From assembly GCA_016840165.1 (NCBI GenBank), contig JAEOSU010000018.1, forward strand, positions 1 through 64,000: a stretch of 64,000 nucleotides of DNA, written 5' to 3'. The notes beneath the pieces are model-generated. The model was not told where the DNA came from, did not search any database, and worked only from the letters and a program-made list of their open reading frames with translations. The first letter of the stretch is position 1. The number at the start of each line of letters is the position of its first letter. The stretch is from Promethearchaeota archaeon (GTDB taxonomy: Archaea > Asgardarchaeota > Lokiarchaeia > Sigyniarchaeales > SOKP01). A program made the translations under genes and the position numbers. Shown in pieces: positions 30,943 through 58,290 of this stretch.

Positions 30943-31686
30943 ATGACTGAATCTTATTATAACTATTTAGCTGAAGATTATAATCATAAAAGAAGAAAAT
31001 CTTGGAAGGCTTTGGAGGATTTCCTGCAAGAAATTGGTATAGATAAATTATTTTCTTCAGGTTATTGTCTTGATATCGGTTGCGGGAATGGCCGCAATTT
31101 TCCACTTATCTCTTTAACTTCAAACCACATAATTGGGCTCGATAATTCAATAGAATTATTAAAATTTGCTCAAAAGAATGCCAATAATCAAATTAAAAAA
31201 AATTTTGAAACGAAACCTCACATCCAATTAATATTATGTTCGCTTGATTTATTACCAATCAGATCAAAAGCTATCAACAGTGCATATGTTATTGCCGTAA
31301 TTCATCATATTAAAGGAAGTAAAAATAGAAAATTGATTATGCAACAAATCTATAATTTTCTAAAGGATAAGGGATGGGTCATTCTATCTGTATGGCGTAA
31401 GTTTCAAAAAAAATATAGATGGTTTTTCTTTAAAGATTTGATGAAGAGAGCACTGATACCTAATTATTCAAAGGTTCAGACTAAAAAAGGTTTAGAAGAG
31501 TTCGGGGATAAAATCGTTCCTTGGACTTTAAGTAAAGAAGGAAAAATATATCACCGATTTTATCATTTTTTCTCTCATAAAGAAGCTAAAAAATTAATAG
31601 ATGACTTTAAAATTGAGGTAATTACTAAATTAGGGGGTCCAGGTAAAAAAGATAACTTTTTCTTCTTCTTGAGAAAAGCAAGTTAG
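30943..31686 (+). CDS. Trm9/ALKBH8-like tRNA wobble-uridine methyltransferase
   Basis: Y..LA.DY...R.K.W, LDIGCGNGRN, IAVIHHI, SVW, VPW, RFYHFF. Confidence 0.78.
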   Translation: MTESYYNYLAEDYNHKRRKSWKALEDFLQEIGIDKLFSSGYCLDIGCGNGRNFPLISLTSNHIIGLDNSIELLKFAQKNANNQIKKNFETKPHIQLILCSLDLLPIRSKAINSAYVIAVIHHIKGSKNRKLIMQQIYNFLKDKGWVILSVWRKFQKKYRWFFFKDLMKRALIPNYSKVQTKKGLEEFGDKIVPWTLSKEGKIYHRFYHFFSHKEAKKLIDDFKIEVITKLGGPGKKDNFFFFLRKAS

Positions 31687-32180
31687 ATAGGATGACAAAT
31701 TATTGAAGCATAAGCTTTCAAGATGTATGGTTTAAAGTTTTCATAATGTTTATCGATAATCGCGGTATGAATATTAATTAATCGTTCAGTAACGTCGCAA
31801 TAAAAAATTCCGTGTATACTTTTCTCGGAGTAGAATCGTTTTCGTATCATTTTTGATCTTTGCCCAAACCAAGTAGTAAATTCATGACTTTGGAGCCATG
31901 AATTCTCTTTCGAAGTGATAACTAACCCAATGGAATTATAAGTGTTAATTGATGCTTGAATTTCACGTCCATAATAAAAATTTTGTCGTTCTTTTTTCTC
32001 CCAACTAATGTCAATTTTTGCATTAGCTCCCCAAATCTCATCGTAATCATTTTGAGAATGAAGAATTAGATTTCCTTTATTTTGATCCCCATTGAATTCA
32101 ATTTCTTTAAACCATATGGGCATCCTAGTTAGTTGCAAATTCCCTTCAGGTTTTTCATAGACATAATACTTATATTCCAT
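31683..32180 (-). CDS. hypothetical protein
   Basis: 165-aa ORF, co-oriented downstream of L13e. Confidence 0.65.
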   Translation of the reverse strand: MEYKYYVYEKPEGNLQLTRMPIWFKEIEFNGDQNKGNLILHSQNDYDEIWGANAKIDISWEKKERQNFYYGREIQASINTYNSIGLVITSKENSWLQSHEFTTWFGQRSKMIRKRFYSEKSIHGIFYCDVTERLINIHTAIIDKHYENFKPYILKAYASIICHPI

Positions 32181-32242
32181 TATAATTTTCTCTTGAAGTG
32201 ATTTCCGTACTGTAAAGATAATAATGATTTTAAAAAATATCT

Positions 32243-32836
32243 TTATTTCTTGACTAATTCCTTACCTTCTTCAATCCAGCTTTTGATTCTTTCTTCTGAG
32301 CATCCTTTAATTAACTGTCCAAGTTCGCTAGGATCTTCCAATAATAAGTCTTCAACAGAACTTACTCCTAACTCTACAAATTTCTTTTCAGTCGTGGGAC
32401 CTAAACCAGAAAGCTTAGTAAGAGGCAATCTATCCTTTGGAATAGCTTTAGCTTCTAATTTTACTTTTTTAGGTTCTTTTTGAATAGGAGTTGGTTTTTC
32501 AACAGCTTTAGCTTTCTTTGGTACTTTAACTTTCTTTTCTTTTATAGTTGGTTTTTCTTTCTTAGGTTTGAATTCCGCTCTCCGTTTTTCTTTAGGTTGA
32601 AATGGTTTCCGTTTCTTAGATGTAGTCTTAGTGATTTTTATATTCTTTAAAGCTTCAATATTCACTTTATAACTTGATTTTCTTGAAAAGTCAATAGGAA
32701 CATTTAGGTTCTTAAGCTCTTGAACTGATTTTCCAGATTCTTTTATTTCTGACAGAGAAAAACCCCTTCCTTTTCTTAGATTTACATTTCTCGAAGGTGA
32801 GATTACAGTTGCGCTCACTTCTTTATTAACTTGCAT
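32243..32836 (-). CDS. rpl13e: 50S ribosomal protein L13e with Lys-rich linker and C-terminal HhH domain
   Basis: RKGRGFSLSEIKESG L13e signature. LSGLGPTTEKKF..LGV...EDL HhH. Confidence 0.82.
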   Translation of the reverse strand: MQVNKEVSATVISPSRNVNLRKGRGFSLSEIKESGKSVQELKNLNVPIDFSRKSSYKVNIEALKNIKITKTTSKKRKPFQPKEKRRAEFKPKKEKPTIKEKKVKVPKKAKAVEKPTPIQKEPKKVKLEAKAIPKDRLPLTKLSGLGPTTEKKFVELGVSSVEDLLLEDPSELGQLIKGCSEERIKSWIEEGKELVKK

Positions 32837-32966
32837 ACTAACTCTACCACTTTTTTAGTAATAATGTAGTTAAGATAAATAATGAGACTTTTTATTTTTT
32901 TCTATTCGGGAGCTAAGCAAATACATGTTATTTCAAACTGACGAATTCGATGAGAAAATAATGGGT

Positions 32967-33608
32967 TCAAATTTGAATGATATCTAATTGGATCAATTTA
33001 TTTAACGATTCATAAATTTCTTGCTGGGTCTTTCCAAAGGATCTGGAAATTTCGAGGGGCGAGGTCTTGCCATCACATTTCACAGCAATCTGAAATTCGG
33101 CATCATTAATCATACCCATTGATACAATTTTCTTTAAAACACTCACGTTTATTAGCAATTTGGGAAAAACCTCAGCAATGGTCCCACCATGAGTTAAATT
33201 TTCGATATCGGTAATAATGGTTTGAAATCTGCTTTTTTCCGTAGTGTCTCTAAAGAATTCGATATCCGATTTATGCTTTTTCCAGAATCTATTAGCAATT
33301 TTGCGTATTACGTCAATTAAACGGTCAGAATTATCATCAGCATCAGAAATAGAACAAAACAAAACCCGTGATAATGGATGATAAAAAATGACAATTGTAG
33401 AGTTTTCAGATTCGACGGTTCGCATTAATTCATTTTTTTTTTCCCCTTTCACCATTGCATCTTGAATATTGTCAATAATTCGGTTAATTTCCTTGAAAAA
33501 TCCAGTTATAATATCATTATTAATTTTTCCTTCTTGAAAATCTTTAAAAGAAGCTTCTAAAATGGATATGCCGTTATCCCCGTCAATTAAATAAATTTTA
33601 TAGATCAA
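32967..33608 (-). CDS. longin-like domain plus winged-helix protein
   Basis: IYLIDGDNGISIL...IITGFFKEI longin pattern. C-terminal CDGKTSPLEIS...IYESLNKL wHTH. Confidence 0.7.
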   Translation of the reverse strand: MIYKIYLIDGDNGISILEASFKDFQEGKINNDIITGFFKEINRIIDNIQDAMVKGEKKNELMRTVESENSTIVIFYHPLSRVLFCSISDADDNSDRLIDVIRKIANRFWKKHKSDIEFFRDTTEKSRFQTIITDIENLTHGGTIAEVFPKLLINVSVLKKIVSMGMINDAEFQIAVKCDGKTSPLEISRSFGKTQQEIYESLNKLIQLDIIQI

Positions 33609-33757: not shown

Positions 33758-35014
33758 ATGTCAAGAAAAAACTTCTCTATTATATTCTTTATCATTTTCA
33801 GTTCTCTAATTACTTCGTATTTATTGCCTCAACAAGTAATTCTAAATGAGATGGGTTATATTAACACCAGTAGTGTATCAGATACTTTACCAAGTAAATA
33901 CCAAATTAAGCAAAGCGTTACCTATTCGGTTGAAATCAACTTTTCAGTAACACAATTGAGTTCATTTGCTGATTATTACTTTAAATTACCACGATTAAAT
34001 GATCGACAACCAAATTCTCCATATACGCCAATGTGTCCTCCTTATCAAGAGAGTGAACTTCTCTATCATAACATTTCTGGTAATCTTCCAAGTCAGACCA
34101 TATTAAATCATACTGATAGATTTAACAACGTTTATGATTCATATAATACAACCCTAAATTTTGCCAATCCTGAAATCAAACTAAGCTCAAAATATTTAAT
34201 TACTCTCAACGAAATCGCATTTGATAATATTCTACCCTCAGAGATAGGATCCTATAATACTTCTGATGATATTTTTGAGCTTTACTGTAATCAATCAGTA
34301 GAATTTTACAGGACAGATGATCCTAACTTGATAAGTTTATCAAACAACATAGTTAGTCCTTCTGATAGTCCAATCATCAAAGCTCAGAAAATTATGAATT
34401 GGATCTGTGATAATATCGAATATAACAATAGTTTTGATGGAGAAATTGGAGCATCTAGTGCATATGGTAATTTGACAGGAGATTGCTCAGAATATTCTAG
34501 CTTAATGATTACACTTCTTCGGATTCAAGGTATCCCTGCTCGTAAAGTCACTGGTATCTGTTTCTCGAAAATGTCTAACTTTAAACCTGAAATTGGAGAT
34601 ACATTTACATTTTATATGAGAGATGGAGAAACCCCTACATTATTAGGACATGCATGGGTCGAATACTATGTTCCCGATATTGGATGGATTGCTTGCGATC
34701 CTACATGGAATCAAGTTACTAACTCTTATTTTAACAGAATAGATTATTTACGCTTAAATTATAATATTGGTGAATGGTTCTTTGTCCCTCCTGATGAGTA
34801 TTTTAGTGAATTCCCAGTACCTTATTTTTTTGCTACTGGACCTGGAGCATATTCTAATACCTATGACTTCCAAATAAAAGTAACAGTTCTCGATACAAAT
34901 TACCTTACAATAGATCCACTGCTTTTGATCATAGTTTTCTCTGTAATTGCTGTAGTTATAGCTTTAATTGTCATAATGCTATATATCAGAAAAAAGAAAA
35001 AAACAAAATACTAA
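33758..35014 (+). CDS. secreted, C-terminally anchored transglutaminase-like protein
   Basis: Catalytic triad GDCSEY / HAWVE / DPTW, signal peptide, C-terminal TM with basic tail. Confidence 0.88.
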   Translation: MSRKNFSIIFFIIFSSLITSYLLPQQVILNEMGYINTSSVSDTLPSKYQIKQSVTYSVEINFSVTQLSSFADYYFKLPRLNDRQPNSPYTPMCPPYQESELLYHNISGNLPSQTILNHTDRFNNVYDSYNTTLNFANPEIKLSSKYLITLNEIAFDNILPSEIGSYNTSDDIFELYCNQSVEFYRTDDPNLISLSNNIVSPSDSPIIKAQKIMNWICDNIEYNNSFDGEIGASSAYGNLTGDCSEYSSLMITLLRIQGIPARKVTGICFSKMSNFKPEIGDTFTFYMRDGETPTLLGHAWVEYYVPDIGWIACDPTWNQVTNSYFNRIDYLRLNYNIGEWFFVPPDEYFSEFPVPYFFATGPGAYSNTYDFQIKVTVLDTNYLTIDPLLLIIVFSVIAVVIALIVIMLYIRKKKKTKY

Positions 35015-35031
35015 GGATAATGTGCATCAAC

Positions 35032-36444
35032 TTAGATATAAGTTTTAATTAACTCTCTTAAATTTTTTGTGAGATTTGGTAGTGACTTTTCAATTTTTTC
35101 TACTCTTAATGCTTTTTCCATGAATAATAATAAATATAGATTATAATTATCTACATTTATTTTTTGAAATACAATTTTTTTAGATTGTTCCGAAATACCG
35201 GAAGTAACAATAAAATCTTTCTTTAATATCTTAAACTCTTTAAATGTCTTATATAAAGTCGTAAAGTGTGGTGCTGAGATTTCAAAAACCTTGTTAGCAA
35301 TATCAGATTTTGAATAATTCGATAAGATGATACCATTTTCATTTAAGAGAAGAATCGCATCAGAATTAACCTTGTCAGAAAACAAACGTAATTGGTTCCG
35401 GAATAATTCACGATTAGGGCTTAGTCGTGAAAGTCCAAATGAATAAGCGGAAATAAGGCTCCAATGATCAAAAATCGATGTTTGAAAGATTTTTATGAAA
35501 AAGGTATGAGAACTTTTGCCTATCTCATTGGTTATATATTCAATATTTTTTTTGATCTCTCTTGATTTCTTTAGATCTGGATCAAACTTATTGATACATA
35601 CTACTATAGGCGGAAACTCATCTAAATTTTTAAGGGAATTGAGAATGTTCTGAAATAATGAAACCGATTCTTTAATTCTTTCAGTATCTTGGACGTCAAT
35701 AAAATAAAACAATAAATCCACATTATACAAATAGACTTTTCCTTGTTCAAGAAACTTTTCTCGATATTTTTTTTGCCCCCCTAAATCCCATATAGATATT
35801 TGGGAGTTTTGTTCCTCAAATAATTTCTCCTCTGTTCTTGAAACTCCCTTTGTGGGTAAAGTTTTTATAATTTCAGAGTATCTCTTCTTTACCGCAAGTA
35901 AGAAACTTGTCTTTCCAGCTCTATCCAAGCCTGTAAATAAAATTTTTAATTGTCTTTTTATCGAAAAAGGATCTTTCAGTTCATTGGTAAACTCAAGTAA
36001 ATCTTTTTTAAGTTGATTCATAATAGCTTTATTCTCCTCTAATGTATTTCGAGCTAATATTTTTGTAGCAGTATTATCGATGATGACCCGCAAATATTTC
36101 ATGTTTTCATAAAAAAATATTTTATTTGTCTCTTCAATTAAAATGGTGATAGTTGCTGCTTTTGCGTTTCCTCTAGCTGCTTTATCAGGGATAAGAAAAA
36201 AATATGTTAATCCATTTAATTTTAAATCGGGAAAAGGTAAGATTCCGAAATAATTAATTCCTTCTATAGTTGTACCGTTTTGATAAACAGAATCGCCCAT
36301 AAGTAGACTTATAGTTTTCATAGCGACTAATAATCGCGCTGACTCATCTAAGTCTTCTGGCCAATAGATTATAGGAGTAGGTCCGTCATCATCAAAAAGG
36401 CTATATACAATTGACTTAATTATCTCTCTTTTCATTTCCGTCAT
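35032..36444 (-). CDS. uDENN/longin-like + Arf/Rag-like GTPase + roadblock-like fusion protein
   Basis: FDDDGP, DKAARG. G1 GLDRAGKTS, G2 LPTKG, G3 WDLGGQ, G4 NKFD, G5 TSIFD. C-terminal AILLLNENGIILS. Confidence 0.85.
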   Translation of the reverse strand: MTEMKREIIKSIVYSLFDDDGPTPIIYWPEDLDESARLLVAMKTISLLMGDSVYQNGTTIEGINYFGILPFPDLKLNGLTYFFLIPDKAARGNAKAATITILIEETNKIFFYENMKYLRVIIDNTATKILARNTLEENKAIMNQLKKDLLEFTNELKDPFSIKRQLKILFTGLDRAGKTSFLLAVKKRYSEIIKTLPTKGVSRTEEKLFEEQNSQISIWDLGGQKKYREKFLEQGKVYLYNVDLLFYFIDVQDTERIKESVSLFQNILNSLKNLDEFPPIVVCINKFDPDLKKSREIKKNIEYITNEIGKSSHTFFIKIFQTSIFDHWSLISAYSFGLSRLSPNRELFRNQLRLFSDKVNSDAILLLNENGIILSNYSKSDIANKVFEISAPHFTTLYKTFKEFKILKKDFIVTSGISEQSKKIVFQKINVDNYNLYLLLFMEKALRVEKIEKSLPNLTKNLRELIKTYI

Positions 36445-36585: not shown

Positions 36586-38379
36586 TTATTTTATAAAATT
36601 AAGACTTTTTATTTCAGTTTTAATCCAAATCTGCCTTAAAAATTCTAATATAGCTTGCTTGGTAGTATAGTTTTGCTTGAATTCTTCTAAACTCACTTTT
36701 TCAGTTGCTCCATGTGAAATTAATGAGTGAAATTTCCCTTGGTTTTCAAGTTTTTTAAATAAATCCATTTCGATATCCTTATCAAATTTTGTAGAATTAG
36801 AATAAGAATCCATTGAAATATGTGGAAAATGACGTTTATCCAATTTAATAAATCGATCTATTGCCCTTTGTGAGGTATCTTCTATGAGAGCAAACTTTCT
36901 CTTATAAATTTTTGAAAATTCATTACAGCTATTAGCCATTTCAGTAACAATGTGCATACCGAGATCAAGTGAGTTAGAAGTCTCATGCATCATGTTATTG
37001 GTCAATATTTTAACCGCCTCATTTAAACCGATAAAACCAATACATAAATCTTGATTTTTTAATTGATAAAGATTAGTTCCCTCAATTAAACTATTACATA
37101 ACGGTAAATGGTTGGTCGAAAGGCGCTTTTTGATGATTTCATATTTTTTGTTCAAGATAGTAGCACATAAGTGCAATTTTTGATTTAAATCCTCCATAAA
37201 TAGCGTTTCATCTCTGTTATTAAATGCAATTCTAGGTAGGTTTATCGAGATCTTCTGAAGAATTCCATGGTTTAAATAACCGTCTAATGTTTTATTCTCT
37301 ATAGTATCATTTAGTTTAAATAATGAAGAATTTAACAGATAGGGGGCTTGATTAGTATTAATCTCATTGATAACTTTTATAAAAGAATCTTGGTATTTAC
37401 TTAACCATTCACTACTACAAAATATTTTATGGACCGGGTATCGAAAAGGATGAGAATAAAAGTCACCCTCTGTAAAGATATCAATGAAACAATCAAAAAG
37501 TTTTAAGCATTCAGAGGAAAAGTCTGAGTATATTCCGTCAACTTTTCCATGAATCCCAATAGCAGTCTCATCTAAGAAGGGTTCAACTATAGTAGGATAA
37601 CATTCTAATGATGATTTAAGATATCGCTTACCAGAGATGGCTGATAAATGATTTATTTCATATATAAAGCTTTTAAGTTCATTTCTAATCTCTGAATCGG
37701 ATAAGTTACCAACTAAGGGTGCTAAAAAAATAGTTAAATGATTAAAGCTTTGGCATCCACAAAATTCATTTTGAATTATACCTGTCCAATTTGCGAGCTG
37801 ATTCAAGGCTTCTCTTAAATTCTGAGGCGGTTTTACTTTATAAGAGAAGCTCTTAAGATCAGTGGGCGGAATTCCGTATTTCAATATGATCCTTGGATCC
37901 CAGGTATGCTCATACGGTCTTAAATCAAAATACTTAAGCTGATGAATGTAGATATCTCCAAATAAATGGGCTTTTGATTCCTCATCAGTTAAAATTCGTA
38001 ATAATGTATATTCTTCTGCCAATTGGTTAGCTGCCCAGTGATGAATCTTCTCGGGATTAATTACACTTCTAATTACATCTTTTTCTACTTTTTCCAAGAT
38101 CTCCTCATAATCCATCAGTGGCATTCCTATGCGGGTATAGAGTTTCCTTTCTTTTTCATAATGATTTTCAGATAAAATAGAACAAACGATCTCTCTTATA
38201 TGGGGTCCAGAAAGGAACTTTATTCCAGAACTTATTATTCTTCTAACTACTAATTCTGTGACGTTTTTAGCCTCTTCTTCTGGCATCCCTGTTTCTTTCA
38301 TGATGCTCTCAAAAATTTTAGAGGCATCAAAATCAACGACATCTCCCTCGGATCGAAAAACTTTAGGTAATAAGTGCAT
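36586..38379 (-). CDS. ATP-cone plus degenerate class III ribonucleotide reductase (NrdD-like pseudoenzyme)
   Basis: ATP-cone V.RSEG...FD..KI, H..GDIYIH, SINLPRIA, IGFIGLNE. No finger-loop GCR, no Zn ribbon, no RxxGY. Start at ATG 38379. Confidence 0.8.
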   Translation of the reverse strand: MHLLPKVFRSEGDVVDFDASKIFESIMKETGMPEEEAKNVTELVVRRIISSGIKFLSGPHIREIVCSILSENHYEKERKLYTRIGMPLMDYEEILEKVEKDVIRSVINPEKIHHWAANQLAEEYTLLRILTDEESKAHLFGDIYIHQLKYFDLRPYEHTWDPRIILKYGIPPTDLKSFSYKVKPPQNLREALNQLANWTGIIQNEFCGCQSFNHLTIFLAPLVGNLSDSEIRNELKSFIYEINHLSAISGKRYLKSSLECYPTIVEPFLDETAIGIHGKVDGIYSDFSSECLKLFDCFIDIFTEGDFYSHPFRYPVHKIFCSSEWLSKYQDSFIKVINEINTNQAPYLLNSSLFKLNDTIENKTLDGYLNHGILQKISINLPRIAFNNRDETLFMEDLNQKLHLCATILNKKYEIIKKRLSTNHLPLCNSLIEGTNLYQLKNQDLCIGFIGLNEAVKILTNNMMHETSNSLDLGMHIVTEMANSCNEFSKIYKRKFALIEDTSQRAIDRFIKLDKRHFPHISMDSYSNSTKFDKDIEMDLFKKLENQGKFHSLISHGATEKVSLEEFKQNYTTKQAILEFLRQIWIKTEIKSLNFIK

Positions 38380-38582
38380 TTTGTCGGAACCTTTTTTATA
38401 TACTCTGTTTTTAGATATTATCTCTAATATTATTATTATAGAGATTTTAAAAAACAATTTATTAACACATTAAAGAGATGTGTATTTATAAAGAAATATT
38501 AGAAAAATTTTGCTAAAATAAGATTTAGATTGTTATTACCTTGGTAACAAAAATGAAATGGAAAATAAAATTTTAGTAATTT

Positions 38583-41565: not shown

Positions 41566-42546
41566 TTATTTAAACAAAATTTCGGTCATTATATTAGCGA
41601 ATGAATCAAAGTCCTCTTTATTAATTGCCGGATCCCCTTTTAACATAAGTATATAATATGGTGTTTTGACATCTCGGATATTTAATTTCTTAAATATAAA
41701 GTTTCTCCCAAATCTTTGTACAATCATCTTACCTTCTTCTTCAATTCTTCCCGGTATGACTTGTGTAAATTGGAAACTGTCATTTAAGGTTAGAAAGTAG
41801 GGAGTGGATGCAGATAAAAGATTTTTAGTTTCCTCATCCTTGTAAAAATATCCAATGATGAGAGAGTTATCATCAATAACCACCACTCCCTCAGAATCTA
41901 CTTTTTTGGCAAATTCATCTATAGTTTTACTAATTAATTCCGCTTTGGGATATAAATTTAATAAAATTTCTGACATTGCGCTAATTATAGAATTTAGATC
42001 ATAAATCGATGTATTATAGTAATAAATGCGCTTATAATCTACAGAACGTCTCAGTTTTTCTTTAAGATCTATTTCTAAACTTTTAAATTCGTTCATTGCA
42101 TTTCGTCTTAATGCTGGGTCATATTTGTGGAAAAAGACATATATAGGAGGTTCAATTTCAAGTTTTCTAAATTGTTCAACCACATCTTTGAAGTAACTCA
42201 TAGCTTCTGGAATTCGTGGTTTGTTTTGAATGTCAATCACATAGATTGCGATCTCTGTTCCATCGAAATACTTCCCTGGGTTCTTAAGATAACTAATTCT
42301 ATAACTGATTTGTCCTCCCAAATCCCATTCGGCTATTTCCCTGCCTAAAAACTCAAAAATACGTCTTTGGGCTCCTCTAGTAGGTTTTAAAAGAGCTATT
42401 TTAGAGAATTCTCTTTGAAGGGCTAAAATTATTGAAGTCTTCCCTGCAGCATCTAAACCTGTAAACAATATTTTCGATTGAGGCTCAGGTGGCTCTTTTT
42501 TTTCTTTTGAAAGGTATTGAATTTCCAAAATAAATTCACCTTGCAA
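41566..42546 (-). CDS. Rag/Arf-like small GTPase with C-terminal roadblock-like domain
   Basis: GLDAAGKTS, KPTRG, WDLGGQ, Rag-type HKYD and TSIYD. True start may be TTG 42528 after GGTGA. Confidence 0.85.
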   Translation of the reverse strand: MQGEFILEIQYLSKEKKEPPEPQSKILFTGLDAAGKTSIILALQREFSKIALLKPTRGAQRRIFEFLGREIAEWDLGGQISYRISYLKNPGKYFDGTEIAIYVIDIQNKPRIPEAMSYFKDVVEQFRKLEIEPPIYVFFHKYDPALRRNAMNEFKSLEIDLKEKLRRSVDYKRIYYYNTSIYDLNSIISAMSEILLNLYPKAELISKTIDEFAKKVDSEGVVVIDDNSLIIGYFYKDEETKNLLSASTPYFLTLNDSFQFTQVIPGRIEEEGKMIVQRFGRNFIFKKLNIRDVKTPYYILMLKGDPAINKEDFDSFANIMTEILFK

Positions 42547-45165: not shown

Positions 45166-46671
45166 ATGGAAGAGTTAATTAAATCTTCAATTATTAAATC
45201 AATAGTATTTTCGATTTATGGAGAGTTAGGACCTCAAGCACTATATATATGGCCTGAAATCATAAAGAAGGATACTAATAGTTCCAATTCTTCATTTAAT
45301 ATTGAGGAAAATATTGTATATCTAACCAATAGAGATGCAACTCAAATCGCTATTAAAAATTTGAGTTTATTAATTGGAGATGGTAGCATTTTAGAAAAAT
45401 CTAATTTAGATGAATATCGATATTTTGGGATTATTCCCTTTCCTGATTATAACTTAACCTCATTAACATTTTTTCATTTTACGAATGTTAATTATTCAGA
45501 AAAACCCTTACCATCAGCATGTTCGATTTTAATCGATGAATCGAAACGAAGTTTTTTGTATAATAATATCGAGAGATTTAAAGAATTGATTGTAGATTTT
45601 TGTACAACATTAGATAAAGAAAATGCAAAGGAACTTAAGTCTCAAAAAGAGCTCGAATCTTTATTCAAAAACCTTATCAATGAAATTATTTTAATAGAAA
45701 AGGAACCTACAACGCCTATCTCCGCTCATCGAAAACTTAAAATCATTATGGCAGGTCTTGATGATTCTGGAAAAACTTCCTTTTTACTTTCAGTAGATAG
45801 AAAGTATTCTAAATTAATAGGACTTAAACCTACCAGAGGAGCAAAAGTCAATTCGATTGAAGCTTTAGGAGCAACCATCTTTATATGGGATTTAGGCGGT
45901 CAGTTGGGTTTACGTAAAAAATATCTAAATAAAGCTCAATTATATCTCTATGAGGCGGATCTCTTGTTTTATTTTATTGATATTCGAAATAAAGCTAGAT
46001 TTAAAGAAAGTATTGAGTATCTAACCAAGATTAAGAACGTTCTAGATGGTTTTGAACAATCCACACCAATTATTTTTATTTTTTCAAAAGGCGATCCTGA
46101 TATAATTGATTCTAAAGAGATCAAAAATAATATCAAACTAATTACTACGGAATTAGAAAAATTAACTCCCAATGGTAAACCAGAGATCTACAATACAACG
46201 ATATTTCAATTATTTTCCATATTGAGAGCTTTTTCATCGGGAATAGCAAAACTAAGCCCCAACCGAGATTTAATAGAGTTAAATTTAAGTAGATTTTCCG
46301 AACAAACCCAAACATTTTTAACTTTACTTTTAAGTATGGATGGTCTTGTGCTAGCAGATCATTACACCACCGAAGCATTGAAACTAACTAAAGTGCCGAA
46401 ATCTGAAGAAATCCTTAATATATTTGAAATAACAGCCCCTCAATTTGCAATGTTATTCAAAATTTTTTCAAAATATAGGGCTGTTAAAAAAGATGAGGCA
46501 ATATTCAAGGTCGCAAAATCAGTCATCTTTTTTAAAAGAATTAGGATTTCCGAAACTGATATGTTCCTTTTATTTTTATTAGACGATGAAAAGAAAAAAG
46601 ATCAAATTAATGAGAATTTATCTAGCTTTCTAAATCAAACTCAAGATCTTCTTCTTCGCTATATTTCCTAA
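45166..46671 (+). CDS. uDENN/longin-like + Arf/Rag-like GTPase + roadblock-like fusion protein (paralog of 35032..36444)
   Basis: IIKSIVFS..ELGP, YFGIIPFPD. GLDDSGKTS, KPTRG, WDLGGQ, SKGD. Shares LSPNR and FEI.AP.F..L.K.F with the paralog. Confidence 0.85.
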   Translation: MEELIKSSIIKSIVFSIYGELGPQALYIWPEIIKKDTNSSNSSFNIEENIVYLTNRDATQIAIKNLSLLIGDGSILEKSNLDEYRYFGIIPFPDYNLTSLTFFHFTNVNYSEKPLPSACSILIDESKRSFLYNNIERFKELIVDFCTTLDKENAKELKSQKELESLFKNLINEIILIEKEPTTPISAHRKLKIIMAGLDDSGKTSFLLSVDRKYSKLIGLKPTRGAKVNSIEALGATIFIWDLGGQLGLRKKYLNKAQLYLYEADLLFYFIDIRNKARFKESIEYLTKIKNVLDGFEQSTPIIFIFSKGDPDIIDSKEIKNNIKLITTELEKLTPNGKPEIYNTTIFQLFSILRAFSSGIAKLSPNRDLIELNLSRFSEQTQTFLTLLLSMDGLVLADHYTTEALKLTKVPKSEEILNIFEITAPQFAMLFKIFSKYRAVKKDEAIFKVAKSVIFFKRIRISETDMFLLFLLDDEKKKDQINENLSSFLNQTQDLLLRYIS

Positions 46672-55845: not shown

Positions 55846-56889
55846 ATGATAAACCAAGATATTATTACCGCTGTGTTGTATATCCAATTAGATGATGAAG
55901 TAGGTCCTAATCCCGTTGTAACTCTTCCTAAGGATTTTGCTAATGTAAATAAGATGCATGTCAGTATTAAAGTGATTACGGTACTTTCGGGAGAACATGG
56001 TAATGTTCCAAAAAAATTGGTCATTCTACCGTTTCCTTCTCTAAAATTAAAAGGAATTATTAAATATATTAAGTGGGACGATCCTAAACGAAGAGGAGGC
56101 ATTGGTCAGGCAGCAATAGCCATTTTATTTGAGGATATAAACGATGTTATCTTTTACAAATATTTTGAACAATTGAGCGACTCTTTCGAGGAAATAGGAA
56201 AAATCTTTAGAAATTTGGAAGAAAATAGATCTAAATTGGAAGAAATCGAAAAAGAAGTTAAGAATTTAATTAATAGAATCAAAACAGTACTTAATGAGCT
56301 ACGGATTGATGAAACATCTCAATCTGAATCAAAAGAATTTCCAAAACTTAAACTTAAAGATTCAACAATGATAGATTATAAATTCAAAATCATTGTGTTA
56401 GGAGATCCGGGAGTGGGAAAAACCTCGCTTATATTAAGATACACTGATAACGCTTTTCGAAGAAGTTATATTCCTACCTTAGGGGTGCACGTTAGTGATA
56501 AGATCTTTAAAATAGATGATGCCGTTGTTCAACTTGTAATCTGGGATTTAGCAGGACAACAAAAATTCGATACAATGCGTCATCAATTCTATGTTGGTTC
56601 TGATGGTTTTATTTTGGTATTTGATTTGACTAATCTCAATTCTTTTGAGAATTTATCTAACTGGTTTCTAGATATACAAAATCAATTCAAGGATCAAACT
56701 AACTTAATGGGTTATGTTATCGGAAATAAATGTGATTTAAGAGAGCAAGTTAAAATTAAATCGGAAAATGCAAAAGAATTAGCCTCTTATCTAAACCTTA
56801 ACTTTATTGAAACATCAGCTTTATCTGGTTTAAATGTTAATAAAGTTTTTACACAATTAGCAAAATCTTTATATACTTCATTTACTTAA
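55846..56889 (+). CDS. uDENN/longin-like + Rab-like GTPase fusion, paralog 1
   Basis: LDDEVGP, DPKRRG. GDPGVGKTS, YIPTLG, WDLAGQ, GNKCD, ETSAL. Confidence 0.88.
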   Translation: MINQDIITAVLYIQLDDEVGPNPVVTLPKDFANVNKMHVSIKVITVLSGEHGNVPKKLVILPFPSLKLKGIIKYIKWDDPKRRGGIGQAAIAILFEDINDVIFYKYFEQLSDSFEEIGKIFRNLEENRSKLEEIEKEVKNLINRIKTVLNELRIDETSQSESKEFPKLKLKDSTMIDYKFKIIVLGDPGVGKTSLILRYTDNAFRRSYIPTLGVHVSDKIFKIDDAVVQLVIWDLAGQQKFDTMRHQFYVGSDGFILVFDLTNLNSFENLSNWFLDIQNQFKDQTNLMGYVIGNKCDLREQVKIKSENAKELASYLNLNFIETSALSGLNVNKVFTQLAKSLYTSFT

Positions 56890-57237: not shown

Positions 57238-58290
57238 TTGGATAGAGCGATCATTCATTCCATAGTATACACTGAATTTAATGATGAATTAGGTCCAAAT
57301 CCACTTTTTTGTCTTCCACAAGATTTGTCAGAGAACATTTCAATGCTTGTAAGCATTAAAACGGTTACGATCCTCTCAGCTGATCATGGTTTTATACCAG
57401 ATTCGCTTATAATTATTCCTTTTCCCTCGTTGAAATTAAAAGGTTTAATTAAATATATAGAAAGAGACGACGAATCAAGACGGGGAAAAGTTGCTCAATC
57501 TGCAATCACATTTTTATTTCGAGAAGTTGAAGATATCCTCTTTTATAAATATATGAACTATTTCAATTCTCCTTTTAATGAGACCACCCGTAAAATAGTT
57601 GAATTAGAAAATCAAAATCAGGATAAATCGCTGATATTTAGAGAAATTGAGAATTTAAAAGATAGTATTCACGCATTATTAAAAGATTTTAGGATTAAAG
57701 AATTTCAGCAATTCTCTTATAAAGAATTTCCTGAAATAAAAAAATTAACTGAAAAAGAAGTTGATTTAAAGGCGAAAATAGTAATTATTGGAGATCCAGG
57801 AGTCGGAAAAACAAGTACTATTTTACGTTTTACTGATAATGCATTTAAAAGAAGCTATATCCCCACTATGGGCACAAACATAACTGAAAAGAGTTTTAGA
57901 GTTAAGGATAATATAATAGAGTTGATTCTATGGGATTTAGCAGGACAAAGTAAGTTCGAACTTATGCGAAAACATTTTTATCAAGGCGCTGAAGCTGTTA
58001 TACTTATTTTTGATTTAACAAATCCTAAATCCTTTCAAAGTGTAATTCAGTGGTTTGAAGATATCGAGAATAACTTAATACTTGAGCATGAGCTTATTGG
58101 ATGTCTCTTTGGAAACAAAACTGATTTAACTAATGGACGTAAAATTGGTACTAATGAAGCACAAAAATTAGCCTCCCAGTTAAATCTAGATTACTTTGAA
58201 ACTTCGGCTCTAACAGGAAAAAATGTAGAAAATGCATTTTATAAGATCGCAGAGAAAATTATTGAAGTAAGAAAGCCAGATTTAGCATAA
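57238..58290 (+). CDS. uDENN/longin-like + Rab-like GTPase fusion, paralog 2
   Basis: EFNDELGP, DESRRG. GDPGVGKTS, YIPTMG, WDLAGQ, GNKTD, ETSAL. Confidence 0.88.
   Translation: MDRAIIHSIVYTEFNDELGPNPLFCLPQDLSENISMLVSIKTVTILSADHGFIPDSLIIIPFPSLKLKGLIKYIERDDESRRGKVAQSAITFLFREVEDILFYKYMNYFNSPFNETTRKIVELENQNQDKSLIFREIENLKDSIHALLKDFRIKEFQQFSYKEFPEIKKLTEKEVDLKAKIVIIGDPGVGKTSTILRFTDNAFKRSYIPTMGTNITEKSFRVKDNIIELILWDLAGQSKFELMRKHFYQGAEAVILIFDLTNPKSFQSVIQWFEDIENNLILEHELIGCLFGNKTDLTNGRKIGTNEAQKLASQLNLDYFETSALTGKNVENAFYKIAEKIIEVRKPDLA

Follow-up and report, generated by a model that had tools for sequence, protein, structure and literature searches.

A Rag-like GTPase of Lokiarchaeia joined in one chain to a predicted GAP-type longin domain with a candidate arginine finger

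Longin-domain GTPase-activating proteins (GAPs) such as folliculin (FLCN), GATOR1 and C9orf72-SMCR8 govern mTORC1 signalling and lysosome biology, and their active states are hard to trap. A gene on the minus strand of the Promethearchaeota contig JAEOSU010000018.1 (assembly GCA_016840165.1; the window is the stretch of 64,000 nucleotides, positions 1 to 64,000, analysed here) appears to place such a longin directly in front of a small GTPase, and thereby raises the question of whose active site, if any, the arginine of this longin serves. The product of the gene, at 35032-36444, is a Lokiarchaeial three-domain switch protein made up of a longin of predicted GAP type, a Rag/Gtr-like G domain and a C-terminal roadblock. 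Both this domain assignment and the equivalence of its Arg91 to R164 of FLCN are well supported and, taken together, highly probable. As to the mechanism, the best reading, to which we give a probability of about 0.45, is that the longin would exert GAP action on a Rag-like G domain inside the protein's own oligomer, whether in trans or in an arrangement left unspecified.

The open reading frame (ORF) put forward in the original prediction holds up as described: it is open over 470 amino acids up to a stop codon at 35032-35034, contains the motif strings pointed out there (SIVYSLFDDDGPTPIIYWP spans residues 11-29, TYFFLIPDKAARG residues 80-92), and carries the Arg91 codon, AGA, at 36172-36174, in a window with a G+C content of about 30%. 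Among the 5.8 billion protein clusters searched, 120 matched as homologues with identities of 71-100%, nearly all of them exactly 470 amino acids long, the nearest homologues bearing Promethearchaeota or Lokiarchaeota names. Over the 121 orthologue sequences, mean identity to the query is 74% for the longin, 78% for the G domain and 73% for the roadblock, and G21, P22, R91, G92, the P-loop, T198, D220, G223, Q224, K286 and D288 are identical in all 121. The GP and Arg motifs thus exceed what chance would give, because G21, P22, R91 and G92 do not vary among these orthologue cluster representatives. Among representatives clustered at 50% identity, the ARG loop is kept down to about 34-48% identity (P0122, 123, 125, 127, 128, 129, 132 and 135), while three-domain paralogues more distant than this ARG-loop subfamily have lost the Arg and retained the GP.

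The N-terminal region (amino acids 1-155; 35980-36444, minus strand) is predicted to be a longin of the type found in the GAP longins FLCN, NPRL2 and SMCR8, as had been proposed from the letters of the sequence, and is assigned from its AlphaFold2 (AF2) fold, its structural matches and the Pfam family Folliculin. The AF2 model of residues 1-150 (predicted local distance difference test, pLDDT, 86; predicted template modelling score, pTM, 0.83) runs in the longin order b1-b2-a1-b3-b4-b5-a2-a3, with b1 at 9-18, b2 at 21-28, a1 at 34-49, b3 at 65-71, b4 at 76-86, b5 at 94-104 and helices at 105-149. Its best PDB match in Foldseek is 8yqg, a dimeric longin from a roadblock-longin protein of Lokiarchaeota, followed by NPRL2, Lst4, FLCN/FNIP2, C9orf72 and DENND1. 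An exhaustive comparison by VIA-align with 48,161 PDB representatives, independent of Foldseek, also puts 8yqg first (Z 18.6), and its ranks 2-8 are occupied exclusively by subunits of CSW, FLCN-FNIP/Lst4 and GATOR1/SEACIT, namely C9orf72 (13.4), Lst4 (12.7), FLCN (12.3), NPRL3 (11.3), FNIP2 (10.8), 8adl_S (10.5; a chain of the SEA complex, assigned to the complex rather than to an exact subunit) and SMCR8 (10.0). Generic longins such as TRAPP, DENND1, VAMP7/Ykt6/Sec22 and the adaptin small subunits rank lower, with Z of 9.9 or less. At the level of sequence families, Pfam Folliculin (PF11704) is the sole Pfam match of the N-domain; at E<=1 it recognises 18 of the 19 subfamily members, and orthologues from sister genera lie above its cut-off with 23.6-27.2 bits (among them 27.2, 26.8 and 25.7). 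An ESM Atlas feature search of the N-domain yielded leads only, a cluster annotated NPR2 reaching 0.85, under the 0.9 level that counts.

Two short motifs carry the likeness to GAP longins. The GP motif has been described as specific to GAP longins (PMC12290439), and the catalytic Arg of DENN and longin GAPs resides in a conserved b4-b5 loop (bioRxiv 10.64898/2026.01.05.697756). In the query, Gly21-Pro22 (36379-36384, minus strand) forms the b1-b2 turn and is invariant in the alignments A1, A3 and A4 as well as in all orthologues. The F-x-x-x-x-GP strand named in the original prediction is borne out in its GP but not in its spacing, which in the query is F-x-x-x-GP, one residue shorter than in folliculin. 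The second motif is the finger loop D87-K-A-A-R91-G92 (36169-36186, minus strand), in which D87, R91 and G92 are invariant; in the AF2 model Arg91 sits between b4 and b5. When 301 genomes of the phylum were scanned with PF11704, other families proved to hold proteins of 170-460 amino acids that score above the cut-off, and these unfused folliculin-like proteins possess no P-loop and are 17-30% identical to the query. When the query subfamily, two paralogues fused to Ras-type G domains and the unfused Asgard folliculin-like proteins are aligned (26 sequences), only six columns are invariant, G21, P22, P70, D87, R91 and G92, so that the conservation of Arg91 expected at the outset extends from the orthologues to distant Asgard folliculin-like longins.

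The correspondence to a particular residue of folliculin comes from a profile of 102 positions that was built from the N-terminal ~105 residues of every sequence and searched against all PDB sequences; in this search human folliculin is the second-best match behind 8yqg. Profile positions 70-99 pair without gaps with FLCN 147-176 ('..ieDekaRGkara..' over '..IKDSLARGFQRW..'), and the invariant Arg therefore falls on R164; a second, collinear segment of the same search lays the GP block over FLCN 4-22 (IVALCHFCELHGPRTLFCT). This alignment agrees with the Pfam and fold evidence. Together with the position of the residue in the b4-b5 loop, it makes it very probable that Arg91 corresponds to R164, the match that had been suggested beforehand. 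The result depends on the breadth of the profile, FLCN having emerged only with the unfused Asgard folliculin-like proteins included and without the helical tail, a source of coiled-coil noise: the subfamily-only profile A1 finds 8yqg alone among PDB sequences, FLCN being absent, and one Asgard FLCN-like protein searched by itself finds FLCN at E=0.39 only. The profile yields no residue-level equivalence to SMCR8 R147 or NPRL2 R78, its SMCR8 match being at E=0.17.

A Rag/Gtr-like G domain, its G1-G5 all intact, and after it a roadblock make up residues 164-470, in line with the Arf/Rag-like G domain with a G3 Gln and the roadblock tail that had been read from the sequence. The G domain (amino acids 164-343; 35416-35955, minus strand) is identified by Pfam, PDB sequence and Foldseek matches alike, and is predicted to be capable of binding and hydrolysing GTP. 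On the same strand it carries the G1 P-loop GLDRAGKTS (172-180; 35905-35931), G3 DLGGQ with Gln224 kept (220-224; 35773-35787), G4 NKFD (285-288; 35581-35592) and G5 TSIFD (322-326; 35467-35481). Pfam Gtr1_RagA matches residues 167-383 with 90.6 bits (E=1.3e-25, cut-off 22) and Pfam Arf matches the G domain with 77.3 bits; NCBIfam contributes nothing beyond a sub-threshold small_GTP match. The closest PDB sequence is LokiRagO (8yl2; E=1.9e-37, 29% identity), LokiRagM ranks second, ahead of Arf, RagA and Gtr1 with E-values near 1e-11. The roadblock (amino acids 344-470; 35035-35415, minus strand) is assigned from AF2 topology and Foldseek, the model showing the order a-b-b-a-b-b-b-a at 345-469. 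The full-length AF2 model (pLDDT 77, pTM 0.71), in which switch I is disordered, retrieves 8yl2 at 6e-21 and RagA, RagC, Gtr1 and Gtr2 at 1e-16 to 1e-10 in Foldseek; these alignments span about 310 columns, equal to G domain plus roadblock, with a TM-score of about 0.7 by target for RagA and Gtr1, and single-domain Arf/Arl proteins follow far behind at about 1e-7.

The gene is one of several in the window that combine these parts. A paralogue of 501 amino acids (45166-46671, plus strand) has the same longin, Rag-like and roadblock architecture and keeps the GP, but is Arg-less, with TNVNYSEKP as its b4-b5 loop; its G1 and G3 are intact and its G4 is SKGD. Between the two lies a Rag-like protein of G domain and roadblock without a longin (326 amino acids; 41566-42546, minus strand; Pfam Gtr1_RagA 90.8 bits). 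Further along, on the plus strand, two tandem genes join a longin of the query's GP/Arg type to a Ras/Rab-type G domain: one of 347 amino acids (55846-56889; GP, loop DDPKRRGG; Pfam Ras about 3e-51) and one of 350 (57238-58290; GP, loop DDESRRGK; Pfam Ras about 7e-49), both carrying GDPGVGKTS, WDLAGQ, NKCD or NKTD, and ETSAL. Genes of this Ras-fused type, of about 350 amino acids, are present in most of the family's genomes, where they often share a contig with the Rag-fused gene. In at least 16 genomes, drawn from 6 genera of the family, one contig carries both the Arg-bearing and the Arg-less three-domain gene; the two lie 6-20 kb from each other on opposite strands, often with a G+roadblock gene between them. 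The pairing recurs, with other genes in between, in a distant metagenome-assembled genome at 48% identity. A census of the whole genome, run with profile A4 on the ORFs of the query's own genome, added six more divergent candidates on other contigs, all with an Arg at the aligned position and with E-values from 6.5e-6 (the first of them) to 6e-3, mostly marginal. They are a candidate longin with an Arf-like G domain and PAS domains (1138 amino acids; C30:248140-251553, L027), another with an Arf-like G domain (349; C58:68609-69655, L031), one with PAS-GAF-PAS (562; C48:19847-21532, L032), one with a receiver domain (314; C47:17491-18432, L028) and two candidate stand-alone longins (245, C86:47505-48239, L029; 230, C67:639-1328, L030). 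Of the nine Arg-bearing longins in this genome, five thus share a chain with a small GTPase, which is Rag-like in one case, Ras/Rab-like in two and Arf-like in two.

Among known systems, the longin of FLCN in FLCN-FNIP2, a GAP for RagC/D (6NZD, 6ULG, 8DHB), resembles the query in its fold (Z 12.3-12.9 over 129 aligned residues, root-mean-square deviation 2.6 A), in the GP that aligns with FLCN 4-22, in the ungapped D-x-x-x-R-G loop that sets Arg91 on R164, and in the Rag-like nature of the associated GTPase. Unlike FLCN, the query lacks a DENN domain, and its longin leads into the GTPase itself and a roadblock; the Arg-less paralogue, moreover, is known from its gene alone and not as an FNIP-like partner. 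NPRL2-NPRL3 of GATOR1/SEACIT and SMCR8-C9orf72 of CSW provide the best structural matches behind the archaeal 8yqg (Z 13.4 for C9orf72, 11.7 for NPRL2, 11.3 for NPRL3 and 10.0 for SMCR8), and each consists of an Arg-bearing and an Arg-less subunit, an arrangement mirrored by the paralogues at 35032-36444 and 45166-46671. These eukaryotic GAP pairs, however, are apart from their GTPase substrates and have DENN-like, NPRL-specific C-terminal and other subunits. What the query shares with longin GAPs is the catalytic module and not the full family architecture, neither a C-terminal DENN nor an NPRL-type domain being present. With the eukaryotic RagA/B-RagC/D and Gtr1-Gtr2 pairs it has in common the G domain, the C-terminal roadblock and the Rag-type G5 TSIFD, but it differs from them in its Arf-like P-loop (GLDxxGKT), its G4 NKxD and the extra N-terminal longin, and no Ragulator or TOR context is present. 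Among solved structures its G+roadblock part is closest to LokiRagO (8YL2), which, like LokiRagM (8ZLA/9M28), is without an N-terminal longin.

Both halves of this combination have been noted in Asgard archaea. Longin-GTPase-roadblock architectures were already listed for MK-D1 from AF2 models by Tran et al. in 2024 (PMC10933270), where the arginine finger goes unmentioned and the longin is not assigned to the GAP type, and Liu et al. reported, in Asgards, fusions of longins to Rag GTPases along with FLCN-like and NPRL2-like longins. The Asgard 'FLCN/SMCR8 longin domain-containing' proteins (Traffic 2025, PMC12290439) share the GP and the Arg finger with the query and were proposed to be GAPs, their partner, ArfR or Rag, being left as an open question; fusion to GTPases is not described in that text, and in contrast to those proteins the query longin is linked within one polypeptide to a Rag-like GTPase. 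The two ingredients, the domain architecture (Tran 2024) and the Arg finger in Asgard longins (Traffic 2025), had each been reported; bringing them together is new, no paper that combines them having been found in a literature search. A separate observation concerns a protein of another genome (G291; L007:1087-1911, plus strand), in which an N-terminal segment of about 110 amino acids precedes a longin that scores 38.5 bits with Folliculin and keeps the ARG (IEDENARGG); its architecture resembles that of the roadblock-longin protein of 8yqg, whose longin is without the Arg.

How Arg91 might act can be sketched from these parts. The protein would dimerise through its roadblock and probably also through its longin, in the manner of Rag heterodimers and longin GAP pairs, and within the dimer Arg91 would reach into a Rag-like G domain at its nucleotide pocket and complete the active site beside Gln224. 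The receiving G domain would most likely be that of the partner, which could be either a second copy of the protein or the syntenic Arg-less paralogue, and the outcome would be a self-contained, self-limiting Rag-like GTPase module. A more specific form, possible but doubtful, is an asymmetric heterodimer of the products of 35032-36444 and 45166-46671 in which a single Arg finger hydrolyses GTP on one G domain in trans; such a complex would replicate in two chains a RagA/RagC pair plus an FLCN/FNIP (or NPRL2/NPRL3) pair. The fusion of Arg-bearing longins to three GTPase families is most simply read as substrate fusion, and the syntenic Arg-less paralogue favours trans action within a dimer. 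The same direction is indicated by two Arg-bearing subfamily members, P0132 and P0135, in which DxxGQ and the switch I Thr are gone while ARG and GP persist; retention of the Arg beside a decayed G3 argues against a purely self-directed finger and favours trans action.

Several observations weigh against GAP action within the oligomer. To our knowledge, GAP activity has not been measured for any Asgard longin. The query itself reaches 17.2-18.2 bits with PF11704, below the gathering cut-off of 23.3, and the E-values of the FLCN match, 0.11-0.25, are not significant by themselves. Presence of the Arg shows no association with an intact G3 across 26 cluster representatives (7/9 against 10/17, Fisher p=0.42), a result that leans away from a purely self-directed finger in particular. 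General collinearity within the family may account for part of the synteny with the Arg-less paralogue, which was not found within 10 kb in the lineage L034. On the side of the reading, docking of the longin (1-150) onto the G+roadblock part (156-470) with GTP and Mg gave a median interaction prediction score from aligned errors (ipSAE) of 0.59 in 3 runs (0.49, 0.59, 0.64), the best control being at 0.00, with a partner pLDDT of at least 80 and at least 89% of contacts shared between runs, which the tool grades as 'weak support'. Some contact is expected anyway because the docked chains are halves of one natural polypeptide, and for this reason even a strong pass would not place Arg91 at the nucleotide. 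Of 80 solved complexes 58 attain this docking mark, as do 2 of 110 mismatched pairs, but at an ipSAE of 0.60 or less only 7 of the 80 solved complexes attained it, along with both passing mismatches, and the calibration is only rough here, own alignments and ligands having been used.

Four other explanations can be set against this reading. Although the original prediction spoke of a built-in finger, a strictly cis arrangement, in which the longin would fold back so that Arg91 completes the active site of its own chain, seems quite unlikely. It would resemble the built-in Arg of G-alpha or the GAP domain of ARD1/TRIM23. The single chain with its short linker (in the AF2 model the helix 135-155 leads to the first strand of the G domain, b1, from 164) is compatible with it, as are the docking score with its rough calibration, the pTM of the full-length model and the joint retention of Arg91 and Gln224 in all orthologues, but P0132 and P0135 keep the finger in spite of their own decayed G3 and switch I, and known longin GAPs are longin dimers with a single Arg that act on a separate GTPase (PMC8213707; bioRxiv 10.64898/2026.01.05.697756). 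That precedent (PMC8213707) also speaks for an alternative that nonetheless appears improbable, namely that the longin would be a GAP for separate, unfused GTPases such as the product of 41566-42546, and the fused G domain a nucleotide-dependent regulator or localiser of the GAP. The same Arg-bearing longin indeed occurs without a GTPase domain, alone or with PAS/GAF or receiver domains, and several genomes have a paralogue of G domain and roadblock alone placed between the Arg-bearing and the Arg-less gene; on the other hand, the five of nine copies fused to GTPases of three families are most simply accounted for as fusions to substrates.

A longin without catalytic function, serving in dimerisation or as a platform, acting in the manner of guanine nucleotide exchange factors (GEFs) such as DENN, TRAPP and Mon1-Ccz1, or binding a ligand, with Arg91 in a structural or ligand-binding role, is unlikely as well. 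Most longins are platforms or parts of GEFs, and DENND1, TRAPP and Mon1-Ccz1 match the N-domain too, with Z of 8-10; the closest structure solved so far, that of the Loki longin 8yqg, shows a dimer that lacks the Arg, the PAS/GAF and receiver fusions suggest signalling roles, and Liu et al. suggested a GEF-like role for an Asgard FLCN-like module. Yet the six columns that stay invariant across divergent members include both motifs tied to eukaryotic longin-GAP catalysis, and the Arg is not needed for folding, because paralogues that have lost it retain the fold and the GP. That the resemblance arose by chance, or that the ORF is non-functional, could be argued from the query's own Pfam Folliculin and PDB FLCN scores, each of which is below significance; the 120 homologue clusters with mean identities of 73-78% in all three domains, the confident fold, the structural ranking and the orthologues past the Pfam cut-off speak to the contrary, and the conservation data effectively refute this explanation.

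The age of the fusion bears on the further claim that the protein is a Rosetta-stone precursor of the eukaryotic module. In a distribution search with the N-domain as query (E<=1e-12), fused-longin homologues occur in 40/40 genomes of the family and 3/3 of its sister family in the same order (43/43), whereas N-domain homologues at this threshold are found in 0/157 genomes of 25 other families of the phylum, several of which hold unfused folliculin-like longins according to the PF11704 scan. Among the genomes sampled, the fusion is confined to one order. As a fusion in one chain it is fairly described as a Rosetta stone, but not necessarily as an ancestor, and the word precursor is not supported: with the fusion in one order and unfused longins in other families, a lineage-specific fusion is the simpler reading.

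Under GAP action within the oligomer, the gene would point to Rag-like GTPases as targets of archaeal GAP longins, and the fusions to Rag-like, Ras/Rab-like and Arf-like G domains name candidate substrates for the Asgard GAP longins at large. If this mechanism is true, the functional link between Rag GTPases and longin GAPs would predate eukaryotes; if it is false, the conserved Arg/GP surface would have another, older function. The protein offers a one-polypeptide system for testing and crystallising the Arg-finger mechanism of longin GAPs, and the asymmetric heterodimer, if real, would amount to a minimal self-contained archaeal Rag-GAP nutrient switch that could be reconstituted from one or two recombinant proteins.

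The remaining neighbours of the gene belong to other protein families. Directly upstream on the same strand, after a gap of 141 bp, lies a gene for a 623-amino-acid NrdD-like protein with an ATP-cone (36586-38457, minus strand), whose Pfam NRDD match extends over positions 8-496 of the 562 in the profile and leaves its C-terminal end uncovered. Convergent on the 3' end of the GTPase gene is a transglutaminase-core membrane protein gene (33758-35014, plus strand), a neighbour also found beside the 45%-identical orthologue in L034. There two small ORFs and then a methyltransferase come after the transglutaminase-core gene, in the order seen in the 30943-33608 region of the window, where an ORF of 213 amino acids (32967-33608) starts with MIYKIYLIDGDNGISILEASF and has a weak C-terminal helix-turn-helix match.

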